Source: an archaeon
GTDB lineage: Archaea > Iainarchaeota > Iainarchaeia > Iainarchaeales > JANQMZ01
Direction: 5' to 3'
Length of the DNA stretch: 32,000 nt
Assembly: GCA_028279805.1 (NCBI GenBank)
Contig: JANQMZ010000007.1
Coordinates: 360,001-392,000 of the forward strand
Shown: positions 6,859 through 29,355 of the stretch, one piece after another
Numbering within the stretch: position 1 is the stretch's first letter
Layout of the letters: every line of letters starts with the position of its first letter
The notes under the pieces: generated by a model
What the model was told of the DNA's origin: nothing
The model's database searches: none
The model's input: only the letters and a program-made list of their open reading frames with translations
Made by a program: the position numbers and the translations under genes

Positions 6859-7323
6859 TTGTTGATTTTTGTGGCAGAAGAAAAATTTTTAGGGATTGGT
6901 TTAAGACTAATTATTTTAATTCTGCTAAATTTTGTTTTTTTTGGCGGCGGAATATTTTTAGCAGAGCAAATTGGCACAATTTACAACATAAGCCTGGTTG
7001 AATATGCTTTACTTGTGCTGGCAGTGTTTGTTTTTTCACTGCCTTTCTTCGGATATTTAAGCCCTTTAATTTTTGCAGGCACAGGTTACCTGCTGGGATT
7101 ACAGATTTTAAAAGAACCATTGCTTGGATTAACATTGGTGCCTTTAATTTTTTCCTCAACAGGCGGATTAATTCTTGCCCAAAATTTGCTTTCAAATATT
7201 AAAAAAAATGAGCCTGTTGAAAAAAAAAGAATTTCAATAATTTTTCTCGTGCTTGCTTTTTTAATGGTTTTAGGAATAAAATGGTTCCTTGTATCACAGG
7301 GAAAAGCAACTCTTTTAAACTAA
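6859..7323 (+). CDS. Small polytopic membrane protein (~154 aa, 4-5 predicted TM helices); possible divergent member of the small 3-TM family downstream
   Basis: The ORF lies 10 nt after the giant-1 stop on the same strand. There is no ATG before residue ~135, so the start must be non-ATG (TTG 6859 or GTG 6871) and is uncertain. The sequence is strongly hydrophobic. The segment LAEQIGT...LLVLAVFVFSLPFFG...AGTGYLLG resembles IKKHIGS...SVVLAVIVVYFGFF...FFGTGLF of the 23356 gene. Confidence 0.6.
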   Translation: MLIFVAEEKFLGIGLRLIILILLNFVFFGGGIFLAEQIGTIYNISLVEYALLVLAVFVFSLPFFGYLSPLIFAGTGYLLGLQILKEPLLGLTLVPLIFSSTGGLILAQNLLSNIKKNEPVEKKRISIIFLVLAFLMVLGIKWFLVSQGKATLLN

Positions 7324-10400: not shown

Positions 10401-13400
10401 TAGAACCGGGAGAACCTTTGACTGTTAGTGTTGAAAAAGCAGAATTTGAAACACTTGAAGAAACAGTTAATGTTGATTCAAGGGTTGTAGTAATTGACCC
10501 GAACAGTTTAGGCGTTTCATTAAACACAAAAACAGTTTTTTCACAGCAAAAATTTGTTGTAATAAAAAATGAAACAGAGCTTGATTTGAAAATCAAAAAA
10601 GTTGAAATTGAGGGAGACTTCAGAGGATATTTGGATGAAACAGGAATGCAGGACTGGCTGGATTCACAGTACAGCAACAACATCATAGAGGCTGAGGAGG
10701 ATCTGCCTTTAACGTTAAATTTTTCATTAAGCGAGTTGGGAAAAAGCCTGGCAAAAACAGAATCATTGGACGGATTTTTTAACGTGGAGGTTACAACAGG
10801 AGCAACAGACTTTGTTGAAAGCATTCCGGTTAAAATGTCAATAGGGGTTGGAGGAGAAGTTGATAATCCTAACTGTTTTGTTGTGACAAAAAGAAACTGG
10901 GAAACAGGAACAGAGGGTTCCGAAAGAATTTTATCATTTGAAATTGAAAACAATTGTGCAATAAAAGGACAGCCTGTTCCTCTGAAAAATTTAAGCGCAA
11001 TGGTTAAGTGGAATTCAAATCACGTGGGAGATTTTTCACTGCAGGTCGGAGCAAGCCAGCAGGCAGGCCCAAGCCAGATTGAATTAACATCAGGTTTCTT
11101 TAAACTTGTCAGAAACATTGTTGAGGCTGGGGAAAGCATTCCGGCTTCATTAACATTTGTTCCGGACGGAGGAGTTTTGGGAGAAGCAAATGCCACAATA
11201 ATTATCAGGGCAGACAATGAAAAAGCAGGCGGAGCACAGGTTTTGGAAGATAAAATCAATGCAAAAATTGATGTTATAAATTTAACAGAATGCATAAGGT
11301 TTGACAGGGACATTGTAAACCTGAAAGAAGGGAAAGACAGCAAATTTAAAGTTGAAACAAAGTCATGCGGGGGCAAAGTTGACTTTAAATTTGAAAGTCC
11401 TCTTGATATTGACCCGCCTGAAATAACATTACAGGCAACCGATTCAAAAAGCATTACAATTCTGGCAGATGAACAATGGATTACAGGGCAATACCCTATT
11501 TATGTTCTGGCTCGGGGTACACAAGATACACAGTTTTCTTTAAGAAAATTAATCAGGGCAAGAATTCCTTCAACAGGATGTTTTGAATTAAGCTCATACG
11601 AATATGACATTTATGATTCAGCTGATTCGCCTTATGACGGGTTTGATGTAGGAATTTTAACAAACAGATGCAAGGAAACACAGGTTGATGTGACAATACA
11701 GTTTGATGAAAGAGACTGGATGAAAGCAATGGAAGAAGGATTAAAATGGGGTTTAGTCGGAGGAGTTTTAGGATTATTAAATGACGGAGATTTGGATGAC
11801 ATTTTTGACGACCTTCTTGGCAAAAAGAAAAAAGACAATGTAGCAACACAGCCGGAATCATCATCAGGTGAAGAAACAAGCGAGGAAGAAAATGAAGAAA
11901 CACCTGAGGAAACTGAAACAATTGAAGAACAGCAAAGCGAGGAATCACAGGGATTTTTGGTTGACGGTTACTGCGGGGCTGTTGAAGGAGGAATAATACC
12001 CGACTTTATGAATCTTTGCGGTGAAGAAAAAGCTGTAGAGACATCAACCCCAACAGAAGCTCCGATAGAACAGCCTGTTTTGACCGGCAGTGAAGCTTTA
12101 ATGAATGAAGCACTGGAAGCATCAGGATTGCCGATAAGCTTAAGTGAATTGGAGAGCGATTATCCAAACGATTATGATTTGTTCAAAAATACTGTTGAAA
12201 CGGAGAACGAAGGTGCAAACTTTTATTTTGACGGCACAAGATTCTGGACTGTTAACCAGGTGCTGGACAAAATTCACGGAGAACTTGTAAGTGACGCTGC
12301 AAGAGAAAATGCACCAACAGCAACAAATGAAACGGTTGCAACAGAAGAACAGGAATGCCCCGAAGGGCAGTACTGGAATCCGAATAACGGAACATGTGAA
12401 GAGGAAGTTGAGTTTGCAGCGGAAAATGAATCATTGTTAAGGGAACCTGTTGGATTGTTTGTGTTTGCAGGAAATGAAACAGGAATTGATTCAGAAGAAA
12501 AAATAACAGAAGAATCTGAAAATGTTGTTGCGAGTGTTAACCCTGTTGGATTTATTTCACTTGGAGGAATTTTTGAAGGCGGCGGAATCGGAAACGTTTG
12601 GGATATTTTAACGGAAATGGTTGCAGACCCTTTAACAGGATTTACAAACGGATTTTTGATCGGAACATTGTTAACATATTTTGATATGGAAAGCGGAACA
12701 ATTCAGGGAACAGTTATTGTTGAAGACATTAATGTTTCAACAACAACTCCTTTGGAATTATTGGAACCGCCTGGAAGAAATGATATTCCTCTTGCAAGAA
12801 ACATTACTGTTATGGCAGGAGAGGAAAGAACTCAAAGGAATTTGCAGGATATTGCGTTAAGACAGGGAAGAGTTGAATTAATATTTGAAAATGCAGGCAA
12901 CGAAGTGCAGGATAATCCGTTTACACCAATATTCGGAGTATTAAAAGTAACAGGTGAAGAAATTGAATATGTTACAAATTACAGCAATAATAATAGAAGT
13001 GTGCTTGCGGAAGGAAAATTAAGAGAAAAAGAAAGAAAAGATTACAGTGAAAAATTCCACATACAGTTCAATTCTTTTTCACCGGAAGAACAGCCTCCTG
13101 AATTAATTGAAACAAAGTCATGCCAGATTAGAAACCTGAGAGGAGAAACAGGAATAAATGCAAGGCCAAAAGTTTTAATGGAATGGAACTGGTCAGATGT
13201 TCAGGAAAATGCATGTGATTCCGATGGCCTGGGCAATTATTGTGACGCAACACAGTTTTCAATCACTTTACTGAAAAAAATAAAAGAAATAAATGATTTT
13301 TTGGAAACAAGTGCTCCGTTTGAATGCCCTACAAGCACAACAGCTTTAAGTGAAGCTGAACAGGATTTGGATGATTTCAGCAAAGACGTTGCAATAACAG

Positions 13401-15067: not shown

Positions 15068-18000
15068 ATGGGTTTAAAGGAAATTTATTTTGAGTGGGAA
15101 AATAAATGGTACGATTTTTTAGACAAGGCTAATGAAAAAATTCCTATATACAAAATAATTGACCCTGTTGACAAAATTGTCCCAAGTTTTGCATTGTTTT
15201 TGAGCATTATTGGAATTCTTGTTTTATGGGGAGCTTTTATTTTGTTATTGCCCGGCGTTGCATTAACATTAACATTTGAAGATTCTTTGGGAAACCCGGT
15301 TTCAGGCTTAAATGTTACATATTCTTTTGGAGCCGGAACAGCTACAGCGTTAACCAATTCAAGCGGAATGCTTGACCTGCGCGTTCCTCCAAATTCAACT
15401 GTTGAAATAATTGTGGAAGAACAGACTGTGAACGGAACAGGTATTCAGAGAAAAACTGAATTTTTTGAAATGGGAGAGGAAAATTTAAGCAGAACAGTTT
15501 CTTTGAGAACGGGTTCGGCTTTGTTTTCAGGTGAAAAAACTTTAATTTTTGAAGATGCTTTTGGAATAATAACAGGAGAACCAATTAAAGCAAACTTTTC
15601 ATGCTCTGATTCTTCAGTGGAAGACTGGGTTAAAGAAGATTCGGATGAAGACGGAAGAATTTCATTTGAAGTGCCGGAAGAATGTGAAAGGCTTACCATA
15701 AATGTAAACGAATCAGAATATGAAGCCAAAACAATTGTTTTTTCAGGTGAAGAAACACAGGTTGTTGTTCTTGTAAAAGAAATGCCTCCCGGAGGAACAC
15801 TTGAAGTTGAAATAAGAGATGAAAATGATAAAATTGTTTCATCAGATTTTTTGATAACAGTAACAGGCCTGGATGAAACACAAAAACAAAATGTTTCTTA
15901 TGGTGCAACAGCATTTGAAGATTTGATTCCCGGAACATACACTGTTAGTGTTTCAGACAACAGCGGAGAATACAGTTCGGGTTATGTTTCAAGCGTTGTG
16001 GTTAATTCAGGTGAAACAACAAAAACAGAGATTCTGATAAGCAAAAACATTAAAGGAACAATAAAAGTAACAGTAAAAGACAAGGTTTCCGGAAGCATTG
16101 TTGAAAATGCAGTTGTACAATTACAGGATGAATTAGGCGTTTTAATAACTGAAAAAAACACGGGAGAATTGGCTGAAACAGTTCAATTTTTGTTGTTTGA
16201 AGGAACCGATTTTCAGGTTATGGCAAAAAAAGCCGGAGACATTGGAACAGGTTATTTTGCAAACATTGTTGAAAATGTTAAGCTGAATGACAATATTATA
16301 ATAGAAATTGAAAAAATGACTCCTGCCAATACCGGCAGAATAAAGGTAAATGTAACAGATGAATCCGGAAAAAAAGTTTCAGGTGCACTGGTTTATTTAA
16401 GATATGCTGAAGATGACAGCATTATTAACATTTCAGATTCTGATGCAATAGGAAACGCAAAAGAAACAGATTTGGAAGGAGAAGCAAATTTTTTGCTGAA
16501 TGTTTTTGACAAAGAAGTTTACCCTTTTGCAGTTAAATATCCGGCGCAGGCCGGTTCAAAAGAAAATGCAAGACTTCTGGATGAAAGAGAGGAAAATGTT
16601 TTCAATATTCAGATGGTTATCGGGGAAAGTGTTTTGAAAATAAAAGCGGTTGATGAAACCGGTTTGCTTGTACCGGAATCATTTTACCAGATTTTTAAAT
16701 CAAACGGGGAAAAACTTGTGGGAACACAGACACTTGTGACCGGGGAAGGGTCGTATACTTTAAAAGCTGATGAAAAAATTTTTATAATTGCAGAAAATGA
16801 AAATTTTCAGTCATACCAGAGCAATGTAATACAGTTATGGCCAAAACAGGATTTTGAAATAACCGCAAAACTGTTGCCAAAACTTTTGGCAGGCCCTCCT
16901 GAAATAAAATTTTTAGGATTATTTAATGATAAAAAATCCGTTACAACACCTTTGGCCGGAAAAACTTATTCCGCAAGATTTGAATTAACAATGCCCGTGG
17001 GGGAAGATATTGACAAAGCCGGAGTGCATGTGAGGGCAGGTGATACAAAATATTTTGAAAATGACGCGTTATACATTAACAATGTAAAAGCTTCAAATTA
17101 TTCGGCTGTAATAAGAGGAAAAAGTTTTGATTCTCCTCTTGGAGAAAATGAAGAATTAACAGAGGGGAAGGCAAAATGGGTTAACATTGAATGGGAAAAC
17201 CCGTTAAAAACAACAACAGAATTTGAAGTTGATTTGACTGTTAAGCCTGATACTGAAAGCCAGGAACCGTTGCATTTGAATTACAGGGCCTGGATTAAAA
17301 CAGGTGATGGAAAAATTTTAAGACAACCTGAAGACATTGTCCTGGGGCTTGGAGGAAGTAATGCAACACGCAATGAATTGTATGCTGAAACCGAATCAGC
17401 TTTATGGTTTGAGGGCGTGAACAACTTATGTTCAGGAGAATTTTGCCTGGATTTGGAAGAATTATTCGGGTTCAGGGAACAATTGTTTGTTGAAAAAAAA
17501 GATGTAATTGTTTCATCCGATTATAATTATTCTTTCAGGATAAGAAATGATTCTGATGACAAATATGATTCAGTTGAATTTTTTGCCGAAAGCATTGATT
17601 TGGACGGAGAACAGGATGACGGATTATTGTTAAAAGATTATAAAATTAAAACAGGTTCAGGCAACTTTGTTCAGGGCTCTGAATTAAATGGTTTTAAAAT
17701 TGACGGAGTTGACCTGGAAGAATTTTCAAAAGGAGAAAGCATTACTGGGGAAATTACTTTAATGCCTCAGAAAGCCAAAGCAAACCATTTGAGAATATGG
17801 ATTGTGGCTGACAAAAGAATTGTTTTCGATTCAGAGGAAGAAAATAAATTGATTTTTAATGCGGAAGATGAAGATGTTCTGAATATGGAAATTGTTCCGG
17901 AAACAATTCCTGCTTTTCTGGGAACTGAGTTAAGCATTAATTTTACGGATGAAAAAGACAAGGCTGTTGAAAACGTTTTAGTTTCAGTTAAAATTAATGC

Positions 18001-21000
18001 TCCGGGCTATTCAAATACTTTGAATTATTCTTCAAATGAATTTGGAAATGTTAAAGTTAATTTGCTTGGAAGGCCTCCGGGAACAACAATAAAAATTACA
18101 GGCCAAAAAACAGGGTTTAAACTGGCAGTAAAAGAATTTGAAATAAATCCGGACCCTTTAACCGTTTCAGGAAAATTAAACTTTTCACTTAACACTCAAA
18201 CAGTAAAAGAAGATTCAAAAGAAATAACAATAAAGAATGAAACAGCTGAAGATTTTGAAATAATTGACATGTTTTTGAGCATTGAAAATGTTCCAGGGAT
18301 TGAAGCATTGGACCAGGGAAGAATTTTGGCACATTTGGAGTCACTGGAAGGCATAATAGTTGAACAGGATTCTGAAAAACTTTTAACAATCAAGGCAATG
18401 TTAAGGCAGGATGCACAACAATTAATTTCAGACAATGTAAGCCTTGACGGCACTCTGACAATAATTGTGAAAAATAACAGGTTTAATTTTAACCATGCTC
18501 TGACTCTTGATGAAAAAATTTCAATAAAAGTAGGCGCAACACCGGATGATATTGGAAACGGATGTGTTTTTGTTGAAGGAATAAATGTTCCTGAATGGGA
18601 GTCATCAACGCTTGGTTCTCCTGCAAGAACACAGTTTGACATTATAAACAGATGCCGTTCAGGTTCTGTTCCAATAGAACTGGAAAAAATAAGGGCAAAA
18701 TTAAATTTGGGTGCAACACCATCCGGAATGGGAACAGTTAACCTGCAGATTGGTTCCACAACAAGTGAATTGCCTCCAAACAGGTGGGTTGATATTTTGT
18801 TCGCAGTTGAACCTGAAAAACCTTATTCTGCAACTTTGATTTTTACTCCGAGAGCAACCCAAAACTTTTTGGGGGAAAGAGCAGATTTTGAAATTGAATG
18901 GGATGCAATTGTAATAGCTGACGGAAAAGAAACATCTGTTGAAGTTGTTAAAGACATTCAGGCAGAAATAGGAATTCTGGATTTACAGCAATGCCTTGAG
19001 TTTGATGGAAGAGTTGTGCTTGGAAGCTTTAGGGATACAACTGATTTTTCAATTGAAAATGTTTGCAACAATGTTACACTAAATATTGATTTGTGCAAAA
19101 ATGACCCGGGATGCAAAGGAGGTACAACCGAGGGAGGAATAGAATTTCCGGATTCGAGAGATAGACGATTTAATCTGGCTTCAGGTGAACAAAGAATAAT
19201 TGAGGTTGGACGAGGGCCAAGAGATATTCCGGGAATTTACGGAATAGGAATTCATGCAGGAGTACGGGGCGGGAACACAGCATTCCGTTCCCAGATAAAA
19301 GCCGGAGAAATTGATTTAATTGTTGAACCATCACCATCAGATTATTTTTATTTTAAAAACCATAATTATGATTTTGAATTAATTGGTTTGGGAGCATCGG
19401 ATGAAAAAACACTTGTAAACACAATGTTACTGGAAACACCGAGAATAAGGGCAAATTATTGCCAGCTTGACAGAGCAGCAGGAAGCAATACTTATTATGA
19501 AGAATCTTTTCAGGTTGCTACAGCCATACTAACCGTTGGAGGTTTGTCAGCATGGCTTCCGGCAGTAATAGCAGTTGGTGTGGCAGCATTGCTTGACCTG
19601 TTTGGAATTGGTGACACGGATTGCAGTGACCGGTCGGATGTTGTTCCATGGCAGGATTTTGTGATAAGATTGGGTGATAATATTGAAAGTGATTGTGGCA
19701 CAATTACAACTGACCGAGGAATAATTGAAGTTCAGGGCTTTAATGATTTTACAGGGGAATGGGTTGGCCCTGCTGAAACAAGCAAAATTGGTTCAAATTT
19801 AAGTGAAGAAATTGGGTTAAAGTTTACAAACAATTCAGGAGCAGAATTTGAAAAACCAACATATGCAATCGGAGTAATACAGGCAAAAGAACATATTCAT
19901 GGTGATTCTCTGCATACCTGGGACATTAATCCGGGGCAAAAGCCTCATGATATTCGCGGGAAAGGAAGATTGTGTCCGACATTTGTTCCGGACAGTGACA
20001 CTACAACATATGAGCAAAAATTGCATTTAAGGTTTAAAACAAAAGCATTGCCTGAAGAAGGATTAATTGCAAAAGAAGCACAGCAATGCGTGTCAGACTT
20101 TAAAGTGGGGCACACCGGTTCAAATGCTTTGCCAAAAATTGAATTAAACTGGGAATGGGGTTCAAACGGAATTCAGGCTGACTCATGTGATGCTGATAAT
20201 CCTGAAGGAATTTACTGTGATGCAACACAGTTTTCAATAGCTTTAAGCAAAAAAATTAATACTTTTGATGAATTTTTAGCTGCAAACAATTACGATTTTG
20301 CATGCCCTGACAACTGGCCTGACATTCAGGCAAATGAAGCTGCTGAAAATGAAAATAATGAAAATTCAAGCCAGTCAATTCAAAACGGAAAAATTGGTTT
20401 AAGTAACCTGGCTCACAGCCTGTCAGGAGAAAATGCAACAATAATTGCAACAATTCAGAATAAAGGTTCGGAAGCTTCAACTGCAACCGTTTCAATGACA
20501 ATAAATGGCCCGGATGGTTATTCTGATTCATGTGATGTTACAAGCGGGAGCATTGATTCTGGAAACAATGCAAATGTTGAATGTGATTTCACAGGATTAA
20601 AAGTTGTGCCTGACGATTTTTATTCAGTGGCAGCACAGGTTACAGATTCAAATCCTGTTGAAAAACAGGACTCTGTTCTGACAAGAACTTTTACAAACTT
20701 TGGTTCAAGCTCAAGCTGTTGGCTTGAGAGAAGCACAAGAAAAGTTGGAGAAACACAGTTAATTGAATTATGGTTAAATGAAAACCTGGCTCAAACCGGG
20801 CAATACGTAAATGAAAACAATGTTGTCTGGACAACAAATGTGTCTGGCTTTGAAGCATTGCATGACTTGCTGCATTTCAGGGCTCAATTAATCAGGGATG
20901 GTTATACTTCTGATTTCAGAAAAGATTTTGCAGAATTTTATACAACTTCAAGTTTTTTTGATGCACCTGGCTGGTTTGCATCCGATTCAACAGGAAAACT

Positions 21001-22120
21001 GGCTGACTATTTTGCTTCACCGGATAACAGAATCAGATTTGTAAAACAGTGGAACAAAAAAGAGGATGCAAAGCTTGCAACTCCGGGAGAATATGCGGTT
21101 GATATTGATGTAATTTTTGAAGATGACTGGAGTTTTTACAATAATGCACAGCCAAATACAAACATTACAATTGTTTTGGATAAAATACAAGAACCTGTGC
21201 CAAATTCCCCGTTTTATTATATTCCGTTTAATGGGGAAACAGGATTGGACAGCAGTAATGGAAGGCAGGGTTACGGAGTCAATTATTCAAATGAAGATGA
21301 CAAAATTTTGTTAAAAGATTTGCCTCGCCCTCTTGACACAACAAATCTGATTAATTCAAATCCGTTGTTTTTGTTAAAAACAGATGTTGAAAAAGGATTC
21401 AGGCAGGTTAATTCAATTAGTTCAACAAGAGGCATAGTTTTAACAGTTGATCAGGGTTCAAATGAAAAAGAAAAAACACTGGTGTTTGCACCAAGCTTTG
21501 CAACACCTATTACAATGCATGCAGAACAGCAAAATGTTACAGAGGAAAATTTTTCAGAATACTTTCAGTTGTTTGAAAATTCACAGGCAATAAATGTTGG
21601 CCCGGTATTAAGTTACTGGAATGGCATGGGACAATGCAAAGATTTTACAGGCGGACCAATTTCACAGGAATTTGATTATTATGCTGACAGGCAGGCAACA
21701 CAATCAGACCAAATCGGAGGATGGCAGCAGGCTTATGCAATTGACTGGCCTTTCGCAGATAAAACAGGTGATGTTTATCTATATACAACCATTTACACTC
21801 CGGCATCAAAAGATTATTTGATTGCATCCCATTCAAACAGTTCTTTGAATTTTTTCACACCAAATGAAATTGAGGCAGTACAAATATCAGCACAAGGTGT
21901 TTTGGGAATGACAGGCAATGACATGCTTGGTGCAGACAGTTTGTCATCATTACAAGAGGTGTTTGACCTGGTTGAATCTGAAACATTGTGCGTAAGCGAA
22001 AATGGCTTGAAATCAGAATTTTTCTGGAACCCTGAAAAATTATGGGAAGCCTCAGGTTCAAATGTAAGCCAGGAAAGCTTTTCAGCCGGCTTAACTGCCG
22101 GAAACAGTTGCATTGGCTGA
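15068..22120 (+). CDS. Giant membrane-anchored surface protein, paralog 3 of 3 (2350 aa); uncharacterised family
   Basis: ATG at 15068 lies 42 nt after the paralog-2 stop. The leader plus TM (nt 15188-15265) are highly similar to paralog 2. The core starts at KFLGLF (~16907). Shared blocks are AKWVNIEWE, CSGEFC, YCDATQFSI, LIRDGYTSDFRKDF, SPFYYIPFNG..NGRQGYGVNY and FFWNPEK. It also has a CARDB-like stretch (NATIIATIQNKGSEASTATVSMTINGP...) and an internal 33-aa uncharged hydrophobic segment (19514-19612). Confidence 0.93.
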   Translation: MGLKEIYFEWENKWYDFLDKANEKIPIYKIIDPVDKIVPSFALFLSIIGILVLWGAFILLLPGVALTLTFEDSLGNPVSGLNVTYSFGAGTATALTNSSGMLDLRVPPNSTVEIIVEEQTVNGTGIQRKTEFFEMGEENLSRTVSLRTGSALFSGEKTLIFEDAFGIITGEPIKANFSCSDSSVEDWVKEDSDEDGRISFEVPEECERLTINVNESEYEAKTIVFSGEETQVVVLVKEMPPGGTLEVEIRDENDKIVSSDFLITVTGLDETQKQNVSYGATAFEDLIPGTYTVSVSDNSGEYSSGYVSSVVVNSGETTKTEILISKNIKGTIKVTVKDKVSGSIVENAVVQLQDELGVLITEKNTGELAETVQFLLFEGTDFQVMAKKAGDIGTGYFANIVENVKLNDNIIIEIEKMTPANTGRIKVNVTDESGKKVSGALVYLRYAEDDSIINISDSDAIGNAKETDLEGEANFLLNVFDKEVYPFAVKYPAQAGSKENARLLDEREENVFNIQMVIGESVLKIKAVDETGLLVPESFYQIFKSNGEKLVGTQTLVTGEGSYTLKADEKIFIIAENENFQSYQSNVIQLWPKQDFEITAKLLPKLLAGPPEIKFLGLFNDKKSVTTPLAGKTYSARFELTMPVGEDIDKAGVHVRAGDTKYFENDALYINNVKASNYSAVIRGKSFDSPLGENEELTEGKAKWVNIEWENPLKTTTEFEVDLTVKPDTESQEPLHLNYRAWIKTGDGKILRQPEDIVLGLGGSNATRNELYAETESALWFEGVNNLCSGEFCLDLEELFGFREQLFVEKKDVIVSSDYNYSFRIRNDSDDKYDSVEFFAESIDLDGEQDDGLLLKDYKIKTGSGNFVQGSELNGFKIDGVDLEEFSKGESITGEITLMPQKAKANHLRIWIVADKRIVFDSEEENKLIFNAEDEDVLNMEIVPETIPAFLGTELSINFTDEKDKAVENVLVSVKINAPGYSNTLNYSSNEFGNVKVNLLGRPPGTTIKITGQKTGFKLAVKEFEINPDPLTVSGKLNFSLNTQTVKEDSKEITIKNETAEDFEIIDMFLSIENVPGIEALDQGRILAHLESLEGIIVEQDSEKLLTIKAMLRQDAQQLISDNVSLDGTLTIIVKNNRFNFNHALTLDEKISIKVGATPDDIGNGCVFVEGINVPEWESSTLGSPARTQFDIINRCRSGSVPIELEKIRAKLNLGATPSGMGTVNLQIGSTTSELPPNRWVDILFAVEPEKPYSATLIFTPRATQNFLGERADFEIEWDAIVIADGKETSVEVVKDIQAEIGILDLQQCLEFDGRVVLGSFRDTTDFSIENVCNNVTLNIDLCKNDPGCKGGTTEGGIEFPDSRDRRFNLASGEQRIIEVGRGPRDIPGIYGIGIHAGVRGGNTAFRSQIKAGEIDLIVEPSPSDYFYFKNHNYDFELIGLGASDEKTLVNTMLLETPRIRANYCQLDRAAGSNTYYEESFQVATAILTVGGLSAWLPAVIAVGVAALLDLFGIGDTDCSDRSDVVPWQDFVIRLGDNIESDCGTITTDRGIIEVQGFNDFTGEWVGPAETSKIGSNLSEEIGLKFTNNSGAEFEKPTYAIGVIQAKEHIHGDSLHTWDINPGQKPHDIRGKGRLCPTFVPDSDTTTYEQKLHLRFKTKALPEEGLIAKEAQQCVSDFKVGHTGSNALPKIELNWEWGSNGIQADSCDADNPEGIYCDATQFSIALSKKINTFDEFLAANNYDFACPDNWPDIQANEAAENENNENSSQSIQNGKIGLSNLAHSLSGENATIIATIQNKGSEASTATVSMTINGPDGYSDSCDVTSGSIDSGNNANVECDFTGLKVVPDDFYSVAAQVTDSNPVEKQDSVLTRTFTNFGSSSSCWLERSTRKVGETQLIELWLNENLAQTGQYVNENNVVWTTNVSGFEALHDLLHFRAQLIRDGYTSDFRKDFAEFYTTSSFFDAPGWFASDSTGKLADYFASPDNRIRFVKQWNKKEDAKLATPGEYAVDIDVIFEDDWSFYNNAQPNTNITIVLDKIQEPVPNSPFYYIPFNGETGLDSSNGRQGYGVNYSNEDDKILLKDLPRPLDTTNLINSNPLFLLKTDVEKGFRQVNSISSTRGIVLTVDQGSNEKEKTLVFAPSFATPITMHAEQQNVTEENFSEYFQLFENSQAINVGPVLSYWNGMGQCKDFTGGPISQEFDYYADRQATQSDQIGGWQQAYAIDWPFADKTGDVYLYTTIYTPASKDYLIASHSNSSLNFFTPNEIEAVQISAQGVLGMTGNDMLGADSLSSLQEVFDLVESETLCVSENGLKSEFFWNPEKLWEASGSNVSQESFSAGLTAGNSCIG
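15188..15265 (+). other. Signal-anchor transmembrane helix of giant paralog 3; conserved cytoplasmic leader at 15068-15187
   Basis: FALFLSIIGILVLWGAFILLLPGVAL. The arrangement is homologous to paralog 2. Confidence 0.7.
19514..19612 (+). other. Internal 33-aa uncharged Gly/Ala-rich hydrophobic segment in giant paralog 3
   Basis: VATAILTVGGLSAWLPAVIAVGVAALLDLFGIG sits ~1480 aa into a protein that otherwise looks extracytoplasmic. Confidence 0.75.
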
Positions 22121-22133
22121 TTAAAAGAACAGC

Positions 22134-22141
22134 TATTTAAA
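22134..22141 (+). promoter_or_regulatory. TATA box candidate (TATTTAAA) for the small-membrane-protein operon
   Basis: This exact octamer lies 33 nt upstream of ATG 22167 with no SD, which fits a leaderless archaeal mRNA. A T6 run at 22155-22160 could terminate the giant-3 transcript. Confidence 0.45.
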
Positions 22142-22166
22142 TGAGTTAATCCTATTTTTTAGCAAC

Positions 22167-22592
22167 ATGTTCGGGGAAGCAACAGCTTTATTTTCATTCG
22201 GAGAATTGTTTGCAGATTTTAATTTTGTGTTAAAAATATTTGTACTTTTAAGCATTATTTCTTTCATAAAAAACCATTTGGGCACAGGGCCATTGGCAAT
22301 AATTTTAATTTTAGGAATCGGTTACTTTGTTTTCTTTGAAGCATGGGTTTTTTTCGGAGGAATTTATGTTTTGTATATGCTGCTTGCTTTAGGTGTAAGC
22401 GGAATACTAATAGACTTTTTCTTTGTATCCGGAGGACCTGCTGGCGGAAAACCTGAAGAAGCCGGACAACAATTAAGTCCTGTTTCATCAGGTGCTGACA
22501 TTGCACGAAGACAGGCTCAGATGAAAGCAGCTCATCAGGCTCAGGCAAGACTGGGCGGAAAACCAAAGCCTCCAATGAGGCCGGGTGGTTAA
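22167..22592 (+). CDS. Small membrane protein (141 aa), 3-TM family member A, with a basic Ala/Gln/Pro-rich C-terminal tail
   Basis: ATG lies 33 nt downstream of a TATTTAAA octamer with no SD, which fits a leaderless transcript. It has three hydrophobic helices with the loop IKNHLGTGP. It aligns without gaps to the 23356 product (ADFNFVL..FIKNHLGT..YFVFF vs ANFTTVL..WIKKHIGS..YFGFF). Confidence 0.75.
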   Translation: MFGEATALFSFGELFADFNFVLKIFVLLSIISFIKNHLGTGPLAIILILGIGYFVFFEAWVFFGGIYVLYMLLALGVSGILIDFFFVSGGPAGGKPEEAGQQLSPVSSGADIARRQAQMKAAHQAQARLGGKPKPPMRPGG

Positions 22593-22593
22593 A

Positions 22594-22914
22594 ATGAATG
22601 AACGTGGAAATTTAATTTTAATGATATTGGGTGCTTTCGTAATACTTGCATTGCTGCCACCCGTAATAATGATGGTTTTTCCTTTGGCAGATTTGCTTAT
22701 GAGAATTATTCTGGTTTTGCTAATTTTTACAACTGTCAGAGGTTATTTAGGTTCAAATGCTTTGGCGATAATTATCAGTGCTGTGTTAATTTATTTTATT
22801 GTAATAAAACATCCTTACATTTCCACAAGCATTTATGTAATATTTTTCGTATTATTAATGTTCCAGTTTTTGAGTGTCATAATCTGGGGAATAGGAACAC
22901 AAATGAGGCATTAG
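22594..22914 (+). CDS. Small membrane protein (106 aa from ATG 22594), 3-TM family member B with one extra N-terminal helix
   Basis: The ORF track starts at GTG 22585. I prefer ATG 22594 because it lies 1 nt after the upstream TAA (22590-22592) and is preceded by GGGTGG. The core TVRGYLGSNALAIIISAVLIYFIVI...IYVIFFVLL matches the family pattern. Confidence 0.7.
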   Translation: MNERGNLILMILGAFVILALLPPVIMMVFPLADLLMRIILVLLIFTTVRGYLGSNALAIIISAVLIYFIVIKHPYISTSIYVIFFVLLMFQFLSVIIWGIGTQMRH

Positions 22915-22922
22915 GTGAATAA

Positions 22923-23309
22923 ATGAAGAGAAAAGTGGAACGCAGGAAAAATATTGAAAGGTTGCCAAAAATTCCTTTTGGAATGGAATATCAAATACAA
23001 CTTGAAACATTTGAAAAACATTTTAAGAGCATTCCATTTGATAAAGCAAAAGAAATTGCAAGAGACATTGCAGAAATTGCTTCAAACCCATGGATGTCTG
23101 AAGCTGAAGTTTTTGCCGGAATAAGAGACATTTACAAAGAAAAAGTTTTGCCCAATATTTCAAATGAAGGAGAAAAACAAAAGGCTGAGATTAGTATTAG
23201 AAGCATGGAAACCGAATACGGAAGAGCCATAACAGAAGAAAGTTTGAAGGAAATAAGCGAAACCGGAAAAGCAAGGTTAAAAAGAAGAAGAAAGCCTGAA
23301 TTGAGATAG
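22923..23309 (+). CDS. Small soluble, highly charged protein (128 aa) with basic N- and C-termini; function unknown
   Basis: ATG is preceded by AGGTGA (22913-22918), which overlaps the upstream stop, indicating translational coupling. It has no hydrophobic segment. Termini are MKRKVERRKNIER... and ...KARLKRRRKPELR. I recognise no family. Confidence 0.7.
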   Translation: MKRKVERRKNIERLPKIPFGMEYQIQLETFEKHFKSIPFDKAKEIARDIAEIASNPWMSEAEVFAGIRDIYKEKVLPNISNEGEKQKAEISIRSMETEYGRAITEESLKEISETGKARLKRRRKPELR

Positions 23310-23315
23310 AATAGT

Positions 23316-23323
23316 TATTTAAA
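23316..23323 (+). promoter_or_regulatory. TATA box candidate (TATTTAAA) internal to the small-gene cluster
   Basis: The same exact octamer lies 40 nt upstream of ATG 23356, in the only gap longer than 20 nt within the six-gene cluster. Confidence 0.4.
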
Positions 23324-23355
23324 CCATGGAAAAGTAAAAATATTAAGGTATTAAA

Positions 23356-23637
23356 ATGTTGGAATTTTTAAACGGGCTTTTTCCTGACATATGGGCAAAT
23401 TTTACAACAGTATTGGCAATACTTTACACAATATGGTTTTATTCCTGGATAAAAAAACACATTGGCTCTGCAAAAATTTCAGTTGTGCTTGCGGTAATAG
23501 TTGTTTACTTTGGATTCTTTACAAATCCGATATTGTTATGGGTTCCGGTAATATTATACCTGTTGGCATTTTTTGGAACAGGATTGTTTGAAAAAATTCC
23601 GGAAGGAAAAGAAAAACCCGATTATTTAAGAGACTAA
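23356..23637 (+). CDS. Small membrane protein (93 aa), 3-TM family member C
   Basis: ATG lies 40 nt downstream of a second exact TATTTAAA octamer. It has three TM helices with the loop IKKHIGSAK and is a clear paralog of the 22167 product. Confidence 0.75.
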   Translation: MLEFLNGLFPDIWANFTTVLAILYTIWFYSWIKKHIGSAKISVVLAVIVVYFGFFTNPILLWVPVILYLLAFFGTGLFEKIPEGKEKPDYLRD

Positions 23638-23653
23638 AAAATTTGGTGTTTGA

Positions 23654-23953
23654 ATGGACAAATTTACACTGGCAATAGCAATAATAATGATAGCATTGTC
23701 ATTACAGTTTGAACAGAATTTGCTGGCAGCAGGAATAATTGTTTTGATGATAATATCCTTAAAGTCGTGGGTTGCAACAATTGTTTTAATTGGTTCACTG
23801 GCTTTTTTGTTTTTTACAAGAGAAGCAATAGGAATTTACTGGCCTTACATAATTGTGGGACTGGTGATATTGGCATTTGTTCTGGATTCAAGAGCAAAAA
23901 ATCCCGCACCAGATTACGGAGGAGGCTTCGGAGGATTAGGCGGCGGATTGTAA
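23654..23953 (+). CDS. Small membrane protein (99 aa), divergent 3-TM family member D with a Gly-rich C-terminus (GGGFGGLGGGL)
   Basis: GGTG (23645-23648) lies 5 nt upstream of the ATG. The pattern LKSWVAT...LAFLFFTRE...IIVGLVILAFVL resembles the KKHIGS...YFGFFTNP... pattern of the family. Confidence 0.7.
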   Translation: MDKFTLAIAIIMIALSLQFEQNLLAAGIIVLMIISLKSWVATIVLIGSLAFLFFTREAIGIYWPYIIVGLVILAFVLDSRAKNPAPDYGGGFGGLGGGL

Positions 23954-23954
23954 A

Positions 23955-24320
23955 ATGAAAAAATTTGCAAAACCGTTTATTGTTCTGGCTATATTTTTAC
24001 TGGCAAGCTGGTTTTTTGGTTACATATTTTTAAGTTATTTTTTCGCAGCATTGCTTTTGGTTTACACAATTTTGACCTTGTTTTTAATAACTGGAAAAAA
24101 AGGATTAAAGGAAACAAAAAAAAGTTTGAAGGAAATGGACAAACATGAAGCCCCCGGACCAAACACAAAACCATGGGGCAAAGCACTAAAACAAATTGGA
24201 GAAAAAACAGGAGAACAAATAGTCAAATCAGATGAACCATGGGGTTCCCACAGGACAGGAACAAGAATAGCAAAAGGCTCAAAAAGCCTTATAGAGCAAT
24301 TTAAAGAGTTATTTGAGTGA
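23955..24320 (+). CDS. Membrane protein (121 aa) with two N-terminal TM helices and a Lys-rich soluble C-terminal domain
   Basis: ATG lies 1 nt after the upstream TAA (23951-23953), indicating tight coupling. Hydrophobic aa ~7-46 are followed by a hydrophilic tail. I recognise no family. Confidence 0.7.
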   Translation: MKKFAKPFIVLAIFLLASWFFGYIFLSYFFAALLLVYTILTLFLITGKKGLKETKKSLKEMDKHEAPGPNTKPWGKALKQIGEKTGEQIVKSDEPWGSHRTGTRIAKGSKSLIEQFKELFE

Positions 24321-24389: not shown

Positions 24390-26756
24390 ATGAAAAGATT
24401 TTTTATTCTGGCAATTGTGTTAGGCCTGATTTTGCTTAACCCGGGTGTTTTCGCTTTAAATTTCAATGAAAATGTTAACGTTTCTTTAAAAGAATGGCCA
24501 AGCGGAGGAGGATTAAAGCTTTTTTTAAAAATTGAAACACAGAAACAATTTGAATGCAAAAGATGGTTGTCAGCCGAAACAAGTGTTCACGGAAATAAAA
24601 TAAATGTTAATTTAAAAAAAATATTAAATCCCACAAATAATTGTTTAAGGGAGAGGCCAGCGGTTTATTCAACAAAATTGCCTCAGCTTGAAAAAGGAGA
24701 ATATGTTTTAAACATCAATTCAGGTCTGGGTGCAGATGTTTACAATGTTTTAATTGAAAAAAACAGAATAGTTTTGAAACAAAAAAATGTAAGTTTTTCA
24801 AAAGCAATTCCTGAAATTTTTAACAGGTTTGTACAGGAAGAAGAATTAACTGAAGATATTCCGGAAGAGCCCGGATCAATGGTTGAAGTTGAAGCTGAAT
24901 CTGATTTGCCTGCTGAGCCTGAGTCTCAGCCAGAGCCGGAACTTGTTCCTTTGCCTGAACCTGTTTTGACAAAAACGCTTAAAATTGAAAGTCCTCCTGA
25001 AAACCAGAATTCGGGTGAAGATGAAACAGGACCTGAAATAAAAGATTTTTATTCAGATAATCCGCAGCCAGACGTTTATGAACTGGAAGTAACAGCCAAT
25101 GACACATTAACCGGAAATTCAGATATTGCCTTTTGTGTTGCAGAATTAATCGGAACGCAGAAAGTTTTTGATGAAACAATTGAAGATGCAATAATAAAAA
25201 GCGGTTTAATGAATCCTGTTGACGGTTTATATGATTCGCCTGTTGAAAGAGCATCAAAAAAATTTGAAATTGGATTTGAACCAAACATTGAGAATACTGT
25301 TGAAAAAGTTCAAATTCGTTGTTATGATATAAGATTAAATGAAACAATTTTTGAACAGGAACCAATTTGTGATGGAGGAACATTTGAAAATGAACAATGT
25401 GTTTTGTATGAATGCATCCGGGATTCACAATGCGGTTCAGGAGAATATTGTTCTTTCCACACAAACAAATGTGTTCAAAAAACAACTTCCTGCGTTCCCG
25501 TTATAAACACCGGAAGTTCTGAGGAAAGAGCTGACATTGTTTTTTTAGGAGACGGTTATGAAAATTATGGCGAGTTAGAACAGGATATCATGGAAATGAT
25601 TACTTTTAACGGAAATAAAAGAGGGCTATTTTCAATGTATCCTTTCAGCGGCAATAATAAAATGAAATTTAATATTTGGATGGTTCAACCGGAACAGGAA
25701 CTGGCAAGACAAGGCTGTGTGCAGATTCAGGGTTGTAAAAAAATTTTAGGAATAAAGTTTTGTGATTATAAACCGGTTTGTAAAATTGGGGACATTGATT
25801 TGAAATCAGCACCAAATGTTACAACAGGAACAAAACAGGCTTTTTCACAATGCCCTGCAGTTGATTATAAAGTAACATTGTCAAAAAACGGAAAAGGTGA
25901 TTACAGGTCATTTTGCCCTTATCAAAACCAGTCATTTAAAGTAAAAGCAAATGACGGATCTAAGGGTTATATTACTTTAAGCGAGTTAGGCTGCTTTTTG
26001 GGGCTGGATGCGGTTCAGGAAAGCCAATGGGGAAAACTATTAACACATGAATTTGGCCACCAGTTCGGAAAATTAAAAGACGAATATATGGATGAAAGGA
26101 ACACTGCTGCCGACGGCCCAAACTGTGTTGAAAATATTGAACAGGCAAGAAAAGCATGGGGGCACATGGTTGAAAATGAAACAAAAACAATTACAAAAAC
26201 ATCTGAAGGAATAATTTTAAGTGAAGAAGAATTCGGAGGAAATGAAAAAAGCCTTGTAAAAAGAGTTGAAAGAGGAAAGCTTGAGGGAATGAATTTTTAT
26301 AATATTTTTAACGGCAAAGATGTATTAACAGCAATTGACAAACCGGGAGAACAAAAAGAAAGAAGATTGGAATATTCATGGGACGGGGAAGTAGGTTATT
26401 ATGCCGGGTGTGAAGGAAAACTCCATAATATAAGGCCGACAAAAAATTCGGTAATGAATGATTTTTTCACAGGTTATGATCATGGTTTTGGTCCGGTGAA
26501 TGAAGAAGTTTTGTTAAAAGAGCTTGACAAATATACAGGAGCAATAGAAATGCTGCCGCCGGTTCCGATAGAAGTTCCGGAACAAATATTTCAACCATTA
26601 ACAATTACAAATCAAAAAAATTCTATTTCTCCATGGGAAACTCCTCAAAAAGAAAATGAACCAAAATCAACCGCATGGGACAATCCTTTTGCGAGAAAAG
26701 CACCTGAAAAAAAATCAAAAGGTTTGTTTTGGTGGGGGCACACTTTTCTGGATTAA
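24390..26756 (+). CDS. Secreted or membrane-anchored zinc metallopeptidase, peptidase M64 (IgA-peptidase)-like
   Basis: It has an N-terminal signal or anchor (MKRFFILAIVLGLILLNPGVFA) and an acidic Glu/Pro linker (~24835-24965). A module with 7 Cys in 42 aa spans 25368-25493. The stretch ADIVFLGDGYENYGELEQ and the motif LTHEFGHQFGKLKDEY (HEFGH at 26046-26060) match my recollection of the M64 signature (DGYT... and HEFGHsFagLaDEY). Confidence 0.65.
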   Translation: MKRFFILAIVLGLILLNPGVFALNFNENVNVSLKEWPSGGGLKLFLKIETQKQFECKRWLSAETSVHGNKINVNLKKILNPTNNCLRERPAVYSTKLPQLEKGEYVLNINSGLGADVYNVLIEKNRIVLKQKNVSFSKAIPEIFNRFVQEEELTEDIPEEPGSMVEVEAESDLPAEPESQPEPELVPLPEPVLTKTLKIESPPENQNSGEDETGPEIKDFYSDNPQPDVYELEVTANDTLTGNSDIAFCVAELIGTQKVFDETIEDAIIKSGLMNPVDGLYDSPVERASKKFEIGFEPNIENTVEKVQIRCYDIRLNETIFEQEPICDGGTFENEQCVLYECIRDSQCGSGEYCSFHTNKCVQKTTSCVPVINTGSSEERADIVFLGDGYENYGELEQDIMEMITFNGNKRGLFSMYPFSGNNKMKFNIWMVQPEQELARQGCVQIQGCKKILGIKFCDYKPVCKIGDIDLKSAPNVTTGTKQAFSQCPAVDYKVTLSKNGKGDYRSFCPYQNQSFKVKANDGSKGYITLSELGCFLGLDAVQESQWGKLLTHEFGHQFGKLKDEYMDERNTAADGPNCVENIEQARKAWGHMVENETKTITKTSEGIILSEEEFGGNEKSLVKRVERGKLEGMNFYNIFNGKDVLTAIDKPGEQKERRLEYSWDGEVGYYAGCEGKLHNIRPTKNSVMNDFFTGYDHGFGPVNEEVLLKELDKYTGAIEMLPPVPIEVPEQIFQPLTITNQKNSISPWETPQKENEPKSTAWDNPFARKAPEKKSKGLFWWGHTFLD

Positions 26757-26772: not shown

Positions 26773-27258
26773 TTAAAGTTTGTTTAAAATTTTTCTGTTT
26801 GCCTCTAAAACTTTTTCCATTAACTGTTTGACAGCTTTTGCATTTGCATTTGAATCGGATATGTCTTTTTTCAAATCATCAACTTTTTTTGACAAATCCT
26901 TTAATTCTTTTAAACCGGTTTCACCTGACACCGGTTTTAATTGTTCAATTTTTGAATGAATCTCGTTCATTGTTTGTTTTTGCTGTTCTAATGCAACATC
27001 TGTCTGAGTTTGCCTGAAATCATGTTCCTGTGCCTGCACATCCAGGTGTTCTTTTACTTTTTTGGCAGTGTTTTCAGCAACAACATCAGGTTCTTCCACA
27101 GATTGAGGTTCTGAAACTGAGCCAATTTTGGTTAAAAAATTCTGAGCTTCTTCCGATGACAAGCCGATGTCCTGCAACGTGGTTACAATAATTGAATCTT
27201 CAACGCCTGAATTTTTCATTTTTTTAATGGTATCCATTACCACTTTTTCATTAACCAT
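26773..27258 (-). CDS. Coiled-coil protein (162 aa) with a small UBA-like N-terminal helical domain; function unknown
   Basis: The ORF track starts at 27324. I prefer the internal ATG at 27258 (MVNEKVV...) because GGTGA (complement of 27263-27267) sits 4 nt upstream. The residues upstream of it in the ORF-track product (MFALFKSIKYCLTHITLFSGEQ) show no features that support the longer 27324 start. The C-terminal two thirds are heptad-like and charged. It shares QKQ..SKIEQL and LKELK with the 28903 product. Confidence 0.6.
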   Translation of the reverse strand: MVNEKVVMDTIKKMKNSGVEDSIIVTTLQDIGLSSEEAQNFLTKIGSVSEPQSVEEPDVVAENTAKKVKEHLDVQAQEHDFRQTQTDVALEQQKQTMNEIHSKIEQLKPVSGETGLKELKDLSKKVDDLKKDISDSNANAKAVKQLMEKVLEANRKILNKL

Positions 27259-27330
27259 TTGCTCACCGGAAAACAACGTAATATGCGTTAAACAATATTT
27301 AATGCTTTTGAATAAAGCAAACAATAGAAT

Positions 27331-27386: not shown

Positions 27387-28898
27387 ATGGATTTCAAACT
27401 AAATCACGGGCCATGGAACAAATTGTTTTCAGGGCAAATAGAAGAACATGAAGTTGAAATTTATTCAAACCAGAAAGGAATGCTTTTATCAATGATTTAT
27501 GATGAAGAAAATGGTGAAAAAAAAGGAGCATTAATTGAATTGTTTAAGGTTTTTTTTGCAAAAGGAGAATTGGAACATTTTGCGGAATCATTGTCAAAAA
27601 ATGCAATTTCTTTTGTTAAACATTCACAGGCCGGAAACATAAAAATTTTAATGATTGATTCAGGAGCAGATTATGTAAAATTTGAAGAGGAATTGTTTGC
27701 ACAGGAAGTTGACCAAAAAATTGAACAGCTTTCAGCATTCAGTGAAACAGTTAAAGAGTCAGCAAAAGCAAACGAATTGGAATTAAATGAACTTGAAAAA
27801 GCTTCAGAAGAAGAAAAAGGATTTTTTTCAACAATGCCCTTATTACAATTAATTTTAGCACCCAAACTAAAAAAAGAAATAAAATCAGCAATTGAAGGAA
27901 AACCTGTTACACACGGAGAACTTATTTTAGGAAAAACAAAAACAGGAGAAATGTTAAAAGAGCCCTTGGCAGTATTTGAAAAATCAGTGGTAATAGGCGG
28001 AAACCATAATGAAAGAATGAAAGTAATCCATGTTTTCAGTGAAAGCGCATTGCTTTCAGGTTTTTCAACAATAATAATAGACCAGGAAGACAATTTTGAA
28101 TTGTTAAAACAGCAAACCTCAAAACCTGAAAAACTAAAAGAATTCGGAGTTGACATTGACCCCATTGGCTTCCCAATAAAAACATTCAAACCCTTAGAAG
28201 ACATAAAAGTCAATTTACAGGTTGTCAACCCAAAAGCATTGCTTGAATTGTTCGGATTAAAAAAAGGAATAGTGCTTGAAACAATTGTAAAAACAATGAA
28301 TGAAAACAAAACAGAAAGCATTGAAGAATTAATAAAACTGGTTGAACAAATGCCTGAAACAAAAGAATTAAACAGTTTTCAAAAACAAAGAACCATGAGA
28401 GTTTTACAATTAATAGAAGAAACCCATCCGAGGCTGTTCAGCGGAACAAACAATGTTGAAGAAATTGAAAAAAAAGGAATCAAAGGAATCGGAAGGGCAG
28501 GCATACTCAAAATAGGAAAAAATCCAAGAGAAAACTTGCTTTTAATCAATTCCATTTTCAAAGAACTTTTAGAAAAACACAAAAAAGAAAAAAAAACAAG
28601 CCAGTTAAATTCTTTTATTGTTTTTCCAAAAACAGATTCTTTAATGAGAAGAGAATCGGAATTGTCAATGGTTCGGGAAACTGCGGAAACATTAAAAGAA
28701 TTATCAGAATATGGCGTTGGGTTCATAGCAGAAGCAGAACATTTTACTGACTTGGATGAAAATTTAAGAAAAGAATTTGAAAGCAAGTTAACAATAATAA
28801 AAGATGATGATGTGGGAATAGAACTGGAAAACAAAAAAAATTACAGAATAACCATAAGACCAAGTTTAAGCGACTGCAATTCAAACCTGGAGAATTAA
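27387..28898 (+). CDS. HerA/DUF87-like protein (503 aa) with apparently degenerate Walker A and Walker B motifs
   Basis: The layout resembles HerA-type ATPases as I remember them. ILGKTKTGE...VFEKSVVIGGNHNERMKV occupies the place of ...H.lI.G.TGSGKS. TIIIDQEDNF resembles vl.iD.hGEY. SFIVFPKTDSL occupies the place of lvviEEAH. EYGVGFIAEAEHFTDLDENL resembles GRKyGvgl.l.sQrPsdld. No GxxxxGK[ST] occurs anywhere in the protein. Confidence 0.35.
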   Translation: MDFKLNHGPWNKLFSGQIEEHEVEIYSNQKGMLLSMIYDEENGEKKGALIELFKVFFAKGELEHFAESLSKNAISFVKHSQAGNIKILMIDSGADYVKFEEELFAQEVDQKIEQLSAFSETVKESAKANELELNELEKASEEEKGFFSTMPLLQLILAPKLKKEIKSAIEGKPVTHGELILGKTKTGEMLKEPLAVFEKSVVIGGNHNERMKVIHVFSESALLSGFSTIIIDQEDNFELLKQQTSKPEKLKEFGVDIDPIGFPIKTFKPLEDIKVNLQVVNPKALLELFGLKKGIVLETIVKTMNENKTESIEELIKLVEQMPETKELNSFQKQRTMRVLQLIEETHPRLFSGTNNVEEIEKKGIKGIGRAGILKIGKNPRENLLLINSIFKELLEKHKKEKKTSQLNSFIVFPKTDSLMRRESELSMVRETAETLKELSEYGVGFIAEAEHFTDLDENLRKEFESKLTIIKDDDVGIELENKKNYRITIRPSLSDCNSNLEN

Positions 28899-28902
28899 AA
28901 AT

Positions 28903-29355
28903 TTATTTTTTGGATGTTTTTGATTTTTCCATTTTTTCATTAATCAAATCTTTAGCCTGGTCAAGTGTGACAAATTCCAGAGGATTAATTGATTCAATTA
29001 CAGATTTTAATTCTTTAACAACAGTAAAATCCGTTTTAATGGATTCAATTTCGGAAGACATCTGTTCAATTTTGGACGCATTCTGCTCCAGTTGTTTCTG
29101 CAAATTGTTCAGCTGTGATTCCAGATTTGCGGGAATTTTTCCGGATCCGTTTTGAATGCCTGTTTTTTCAAATTTTTTGCTTAAAACAATCAAATTTTTT
29201 CCCAAAATTTTTTCATTGCGGACAATATGCTTCAGTTTTTGTGAAATTAAGTCAATTGAACTGTTTAACGCTTTAACATCCTCAACAATATGGCTAAACA
29301 AAGCATTATCCTGTTTACCGGCTCTCGGAGGCGAATGTCTTCTAATTGCAGGCAT
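28903..29355 (-). CDS. Coiled-coil protein (150 aa); function unknown; possibly related to the 26773 gene product
   Basis: ATG (complement of 29353-29355) lies 30 nt from a TATA-like element. The sequence is charged and heptad-like. The segments LQKQLEQNASKIEQM and VKELK echo the 26773 product. Confidence 0.6.
   Translation of the reverse strand: MPAIRRHSPPRAGKQDNALFSHIVEDVKALNSSIDLISQKLKHIVRNEKILGKNLIVLSKKFEKTGIQNGSGKIPANLESQLNNLQKQLEQNASKIEQMSSEIESIKTDFTVVKELKSVIESINPLEFVTLDQAKDLINEKMEKSKTSKK

Follow-up and report, generated by a model that had tools for sequence, protein, structure and literature searches.

The 32,000 nucleotides (nt) analysed here, referred to below as the window, come from an archaeon of the Iainarchaeota (contig JANQMZ010000007.1, positions 360,001 to 392,000, forward strand) and have a GC content of about 36%. 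On the plus strand they carry three giant open reading frames (ORFs) followed by six small ones, and it is with the small genes that this work is mainly concerned. Five of the six small products are designated A, C, B, D and E, in the order of their genes. The giant and small genes, with sizes in amino acids (aa), are listed below.

21 to 6848, plus strand: giant1, at least 2275 aa, with CarboxypepD_reg/Ig-like repeats; the ORF is without an N-terminal leader or transmembrane (TM) helix, and its start probably lies beyond the upstream edge of the window
7406 to 15025, plus strand: giant2, 2539 aa, with a conserved cytoplasmic N-terminal leader of about 40 aa and a single TM helix; the extracellular part is large
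15068 to 22120, plus strand: giant3, 2350 aa, with leader and TM helix as in giant2
22134 to 22142, plus strand: TATA-like box TATTTAAAT, 25-33 nt 5' of the ATG of the A gene
22167 to 22592, plus strand: A (g141), 141 aa, a three-TM core with a basic cytoplasmic tail
22594 to 22914, plus strand: C (g106), 106 aa, a paralog of A with an additional N-terminal TM helix
22923 to 23309, plus strand: g128, 128 aa, soluble and basic
23356 to 23637, plus strand: B (g93), 93 aa, paralogous to A and C; its tail is short and of mixed charge
23654 to 23953, plus strand: D (g99), 99 aa, a small membrane protein not related to A, B or C
23955 to 24320, plus strand: E (g121), 121 aa, an N-terminal hairpin of two TM helices followed by a basic soluble domain of about 75 aa

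The positions of the six small ORFs and the gaps of 1, 8, 46, 16 and 1 nt between them, as reported in an initial annotation made from the sequence, were reproduced. The Shine-Dalgarno sites described there are found in front of the five internal genes (GGTG/GAGG-type, 5-12 nt upstream), but none is present before the A gene. The TATA-like box upstream of A is likely to be the promoter of the small-gene operon, which would then produce a near-leaderless transcript. The start of the C gene was placed at the ATG at 22594 and not at the GTG at 22585, because members of the C family begin with MN-x-KGN. Comparison of the whole window with Rfam gave no match.

According to the initial annotation, A, C, B and D were four paralogs of one family. 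This holds for three of them. In BLASTP with compositional adjustment A matched B with E=3e-8, and C matched both A and B with E=2e-4. When the hydrophobic cores were aligned by the Smith-Waterman method and compared with 1000 shuffles, z values of 9.4 (A/B), 5.3 (A/C) and 4.7 (B/C) were obtained. Iterated profile hidden Markov model (HMM) searches among the ORFs of related loci reached the identical set of 171 proteins irrespective of whether they were seeded from A, C or B, and profile-profile comparison with hhalign returned probabilities of 97.8% for A-C, 95% for A-B and 59% for B-C. D behaved differently in all four assays: its BLASTP comparison with B gave E=13, its shuffle z values against A, B and C ranged from -0.3 to 2.8, and iterated HMMs seeded from D and from E yielded separate families, present in 48 and 49 loci, respectively. 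The hhalign probability of D against A, B and C was below 6%. On these results the number of paralogs is three rather than four, and D was rejected as a fourth member.

Short and very hydrophobic proteins such as these can be suspected of resembling each other through hydrophobic composition alone, in which case the ORFs would form no meaningful family; the wrong inclusion of D in the initial annotation had exactly that basis. For A, B and C this explanation is refuted, and we give it practically no chance. Their similarity survives correction for composition, and the corrected BLASTP comparison, the shuffles and the profile-profile comparison all back homology. It is further contradicted by the number of homologues (109, with 24 at E<1e-10; see below) and by position-specific conservation combined with fixed synteny over 64 loci.

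A K-x-H-[LI]-G-[ST] loop had been proposed as the signature of the family. The motif is present in A and B of the window, but C reads R-G-Y-L-G-S at this position, and only L-G is kept throughout the families. Four positions ahead of the Gly, a basic residue is conserved in B and C and variable in A; conservation of the His/Tyr two positions ahead of the Gly is restricted to A and C.

To collect further members, a profile of the three cores was searched against 1.84 billion cluster representatives with a threshold of E<1e-3. This returned the 109 proteins mentioned above, nearly all of them 71-194 aa long, which split cleanly into 79 A-like, 19 C-like and 11 B-like sequences. The A-like proteins share D17, K23, H37-L-G, G76 and D83-F-F-F, a P-V-S-S-G-x-D..R helix in the tail and a basic C-terminal end. 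The C-like proteins begin with MN-x-KGN, have the additional N-terminal TM helix and contain TVRGYLG and WG-x-G motifs, and the closest relatives of B terminate in KPDYLRD. The different tails noticed earlier on the individual window proteins are thus a conserved trait of each subfamily. D, which belongs to a separate family, begins with MD-x-F, contains a Y-W-P motif and four short TM segments, and ends in a tail rich in Gly. All named matches were annotated as "hypothetical protein" and had no precomputed Pfam domain. The window proteins themselves were singleton clusters in a collection of 15 billion proteins, an exact look-up of contigs encoding them returned no record, and a word-indexed search with B alone found only B itself.

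An AlphaFold2 model of A, built from an 82-sequence alignment, had a mean pLDDT (predicted local distance difference test) of 80 and contained three membrane helices (residues 2-38, 42-58 and 60-87) and one further helix in the tail (109-128). Acidic residues prevail in the N-termini and loop 2 of the family alignments, and basic ones in loop 1 and the C-terminal tails; in 61 A sequences there were on average 2.8 D+E in the N-terminus, 1.0 K+R in loop 1 and 6.5 K+R in the tail. With the acidic parts outside and the basic parts inside, as expected from the positive-inside rule, the shared core of A, B and C would run N-out/C-in. The extra helix of C would bring its N-terminus inside and leave the orientation of the core unchanged. 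The [KR]-x-[HY]-L-G loop is predicted to be on the cytoplasmic side, and the basic domain that follows the TM hairpin of E would also be cytoplasmic. Two charged residues of A fall within the membrane region: a nearly invariant Lys (K23) in TM1 and an invariant Asp (D83) near the inner end of TM3.

The initial annotation regarded the family as unrecognised, and the searches agree with this. The six window proteins had no significant match in Pfam, NCBIfam, PHROG or PADLOC (best E=0.007, all far under the cut-off). When 110 members of A, B and C were compared individually with Pfam, no family was matched by more than four of them, and 34 D and 33 E members likewise matched no consistent family. 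Sequence-profile searches of the PDB with A gave nothing significant (EMC1 0.9, FliP 1.0, SecG 1.8), nor did those with D and E. Foldseek with the model of A found no match in either the PDB or BFVD (best E=3.8 and 1.1, respectively), a scan of a viral contig collection with the A alignment found no relatives, and no description of these small proteins was found in the literature. None of the tests assigned A to E to a known kind. The predicted topology of A resembles that of class I holins, which also have three TM helices in N-out/C-in orientation and a charged cytoplasmic C-terminal tail. Unlike holins, A to E have no phage or lysis-cassette context, no PHROG match, no BFVD fold match and no viral-contig relatives, and the three paralogs are conserved phylum-wide in a core chromosomal context (63 species).

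The genomic context of the family was studied in 63 loci obtained by scanning one genome per GTDB species; one metagenome locus (L065) was added, giving 64. Where a lineage is named among the 63, it is Candidatus Iainarchaeum or Diapherotrites (Micrarchaeota in one case), and the remaining loci are labelled only as uncultured or unclassified archaea. It had been suggested that the claim of a distinct family could be checked by recording whether relatives lie beside giant genes or in unrelated contexts. The relatives were found in the same neighbourhood beside giant genes. The common order is giant gene(s), A, C, B, D, E. The A-C-B-D-E run is complete in 36 loci, and most of the others end at a contig edge or show part of the run. 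Median gaps along it are 2.5, 47, 15 and 1 nt.

When the window proteins were compared with the 63 loci by tblastn, A was detected in all 63, C in 62, giant2 and giant3 in 60 and B in 59. D and E were counted by HMM as well, which raised the number of loci from 33 to 48 for D and from 4 to 49 for E. Downstream of E the window contains the following genes.

24390 to 26756, plus strand: M64-like metallopeptidase, 788 aa, secreted, with a Cys-rich module
26773 to 27324, minus strand: o183r, a coiled-coil protein with a small N-terminal helical domain (MVNEKVV..); its true start is probably the ATG at 27261
27387 to 28898, plus strand: o503, 503 aa, HerA/DUF87-like, without Walker A and B motifs
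28903 to 29355, minus strand: o150r, a coiled-coil protein with an invariant RNEKILGRNL motif

Of these neighbours, o503 and o183r were each detected in 48 loci and o150r in 43, and the gene of PolB was detected in 40. Neither g128 nor the M64 peptidase was detected in any of the 63 loci, for which reason both are regarded as insertions specific to the lineage of the window. For g128 an iterated HMM recovered only g128 itself, and no relatives were seen in viral contigs. The peptidase matched Peptidase_M64 with 8.5e-6, just under the cut-off. The initial annotation had considered both g128 and E as candidate subunits interspersed among the paralogs; E is conserved (49 loci), but g128 is not part of the core. 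Judged from the sequences, the locus is a conserved operon of the Iainarchaeota (DPANN) with five core small integral-membrane proteins that have no known relatives.

Some divergent loci depart from the common arrangement. In L061 and L063 the order is large protein(s), A, C, an ORF of 71-79 aa and an ORF of 89 aa, followed by the genes of the histidyl- and alanyl-tRNA synthetases, which are not the usual neighbours. L065, which belongs to a more divergent A subgroup, contains the C-terminus of a large protein, A, C, B, D, four E-like paralogs in tandem and an ORF of 205 aa, and further downstream o183r-like, o503-like, o150r-like and PolB genes. The four paralogs (positions 2051-3752 of L065; 142, 142, 117 and 167 aa), each with an N-terminal TM hairpin and a soluble tail, stand in place of the single E. 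In two other loci the PolB matches fall in two blocks about 1.2 kb apart (L003, 5510-9157; L009, 7217-10864), which suggests an intein or an inserted gene.

Among the 46 loci with at least 2.5 kb of upstream sequence, 44 have an ORF of at least 600 aa that terminates before A, in 37 of them within about 300 nt, and in related genomes it is the giant3 orthologue that lies immediately 5' of the A gene. The stop codon of the giant, a GGTGA Shine-Dalgarno site and the start codon of A abut in about 12 species, an arrangement that indicates translational coupling of A to the giant. In every complete giant, a single TM helix comes after an N-terminal segment that is cytoplasmic. A long form of the leader, YYxxE[DE]KWYxFxDK..IPVYxxIDxIDxVxPSF, is common to 20 ORFs from 19 sources; in giant2 it reads YYxWEDKWYxFLDK..IPVYKVIDPIDKVVPSF.

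Clusters of large proteins have been described in this group before. In Candidatus Forterrea (Diapherotrites), clustered membrane-anchored proteins of more than 1,800 aa account for about 5% of the roughly 0.85-Mb genome and were inferred to mediate cell-cell interaction, as stated in the main text of that account (Probst and Banfield 2018, PMC5905446). As described there, the cluster is a locus of the same kind as that of the giants in the window; in the passages of the main text found by term search there is no mention of the small operon, of its paralogy or of phylum-wide linkage (PMC5905446).

Some further properties of the giants and their surroundings were observed. A conserved [ST]-C-I-G/Q is found a few residues before the stop codon in many loci (..NSCIG*, ..ASCIQ*, ..TCIGxG*; in the window at 15005-15025 and 22100-22120), and an FFWNPEK motif close to the C-terminus is likewise common to the giants. 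Residues 1483-1515 of giant3 form an internal hydrophobic, Ala/Gly/Val-rich stretch, ATAILTVGGLSAWLPAVIAVGVAALLDLFGIG, amid an otherwise extracellular protein. This stretch could be a second membrane segment or an element resembling a fusion peptide. Between giant1 and giant2 there is a 154-aa ORF (6859-7323, plus strand, TTG start) with about five hydrophobic segments, for which no counterpart was found by tblastn in related loci.

Taking these observations together, we tentatively favour the possibility that A to E constitute a hetero-oligomeric membrane platform by which the giants are anchored, assembled or organised. A, B, C, D and E would assemble into a single complex, the leader at the N-terminus of the giants and their one TM helix would be docked, anchored or organised by this complex, and the whole would serve as the membrane base of a cell-surface or cell-cell contact apparatus. 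This reading is based on the fact that three old paralogs and two unrelated proteins are kept in a 1:1:1:1:1 ratio, in fixed order and coupled, after the giants, and that the adjacency to the giants holds where the downstream context has changed, with translational coupling in some species. That three paralogs of ancient divergence are retained 1:1:1, always in the same order, makes hetero-oligomer formation a reasonable inference. The leader and TM helix present in all complete giants, the charge distribution of the family, the membrane helices in the model of A and the cell-cell interaction proposed for the large Diapherotrites proteins also speak for the platform. There is also a weak, suggestive hint from mirror-tree comparison: with PolB distance controlled, the distances of A, B and C correlate best with those of the C-terminal domain of the giants (partial r 0.55-0.65).

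Several points weigh against the platform. Genes that are clearly unrelated, that of PolB among them, are also syntenic in these small genomes, so that conserved order alone is weak evidence of shared function. In the window and in about half of the loci A has a TATA-like promoter of its own and is not coupled to the giant; a TATA-like box at -22 to -40 was found in 33 of 60 A genes (59 loci and the window). The pairs behind the mirror-tree signal are not independent and their distances saturate, and contacts of A to E with each other and with the giants are presumed.

The first two of these points are also what would be expected if A to E formed a self-contained complex unrelated to the giants, such as an ion channel, a transporter of small solutes or lipid-linked glycans, or a membrane-integrity factor, whose position reflects frozen gene order in reduced genomes. 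Small transporters have buried Lys/Asp residues and small paired paralogs, and in both respects A to E recall them. It is more difficult to accommodate that in L061 and L063 the small genes remain with a large upstream protein despite the changed downstream context, and that A appears translationally coupled to the giant in about 12 species. Neither the window proteins nor the 110 A/B/C and 67 D and E members had similarity to SMR (small multidrug resistance), MrpF or other small transporters. In particular, no Multi_Drug_Res/EamA match was found in the window proteins or the 110 members, and the core has three TM helices, not four as in the paired SMR transporters. On balance we consider an independent complex somewhat unlikely.

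Other readings depend on the downstream neighbour o503, which is possibly associated with the operon, being syntenic with it in 48 of the 63 loci and in L065. In its family 13 of 23 members match Pfam DUF87, the central domain of HerA (best 2.2e-6; o503 of the window is itself below threshold). The top non-trivial matches of the family profile in the PDB were HerA (4d2i, E=0.003) and, more weakly, 7f6d and YjgR. Walker A (GxxGxGK[ST]) and Walker B (hhhhDE) are lacking in all 23 homologues, whose alignment has GGxxxDRxH and hhhP[EDNK]A at these positions, and o503 is therefore probably a catalytically dead HerA-like protein, that is, a pseudo-ATPase. It is flanked on the opposite strand by the conserved coiled-coil proteins o183r and o150r, neither of which has identifiable relatives; the PDB gave only coiled-coil noise, and Pfam gave weak Snf7/PspA-type matches.

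One protein (P0038), in which the N-terminal half of an o503-like protein is joined to a C-type protein, was considered as a Rosetta-stone fusion. It is very probably an assembly artefact and was discarded, because the 2,625-bp contig that encodes it (L064) circularly permutes the normal order (E, o183r, o503N|C', B, D). The contig, Logan SRR12235899_174173, illustrates that chimeric proteins exist in large protein collections.

With o503 taken into account, A to E could be viewed as a translocation conduit that exports or inserts the giants of 2300-2500 aa or, as a channel, allows exchange with a host cell; a cytoplasmic ring or scaffold made up of o503 and the coiled-coil pair could then lie beneath it. 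Export gates (FliP/Q/R) are typically built of several small paralogous hydrophobic subunits. The resemblance is one of architecture alone, in that FliP, FliQ and FliR are also several small, very hydrophobic, related helical proteins encoded in tandem, and that they form one hetero-oligomeric assembly. The intramembrane charges of A (K23, D83), the matches of the o503 family to DUF87 and to HerA structures, the synteny of o503, o183r and o150r in 43-48 of the 63 loci and in the divergent L065, and the correlation of A/B/C distances with those of o503 (partial r 0.45-0.52, PolB controlled) would all fit a conduit. On the other hand, with Walker motifs lacking throughout the o503 family no motor is evident, a gene on the opposite strand lies between o503 and the operon, o503 is absent from L061 and L063, and the sole fusion of o503 with C is the probable artefact described above. 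No similarity to components of Sec, Tat or type III or type IV secretion systems was found. The A profile gave only E=1.0 against FliP in the PDB, and Pfam FliP/FliQ/FliR and Foldseek gave no match. In addition, the organism is archaeal, and the window revealed neither FlhA or FlhB nor an ATPase partner. We consider a conduit unlikely.

The proximity of a HerA-superfamily protein, about 3 kb downstream, together with small hydrophobic helical proteins having a short basic loop, also recalls the pilin and conjugation parts VirB2/VirB3, CedA1/CedA2 and TedC, which work with a HerA/VirB4-superfamily protein in DNA transfer. That the small proteins of the window are parts of this kind is highly improbable. 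A, B and C have three or four TM helices and not a two-helix hairpin, no sequence or fold match was found (no Pfam TrbC/VirB2/VirB3 match in the 110 members; for Foldseek see above), and the ATPase homologue is without Walker motifs. No polytopic VirB6/CedA-like partner was seen among the ORFs of the window or of the inspected loci. Furthermore, the locus is a fixed chromosomal core beside PolB and not a mobile element, and it has no viral relatives.

To return to the membrane platform, it can be extended to the entire neighbourhood. The locus would then be an undescribed, vertically inherited envelope apparatus of the Iainarchaeota, composed of 2-5 giants anchored by their N-termini, the five-protein base and possibly, on the cytoplasmic side, a ring of the dead HerA-like protein with the two coiled-coil proteins, and it would serve these archaea of reduced genome as an interface with other cells, for attachment or perhaps as a conduit. 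In this extended form we regard the proposal as doubtful.

DPANN archaea have a minimal metabolism and many of them are thought to be contact-dependent, yet outside a few cultured lineages the hardware of contact is almost unknown. If the function of A to E is mundane, for example that of a small transporter, they are merely a lineage-specific orphan family. In either case, the catalogue of unknowns gains a HerA-like family without Walker motifs as well as three linked new ones (A/B/C, D and E), and A to E and the leader and TM helix of the giants are small, clonable targets. In at least 63 species-level lineages, five orphan membrane proteins keep the same order beside giants that may account for about 5% of the genome, which speaks for a core machine inherited vertically rather than for an accessory set of adhesins.

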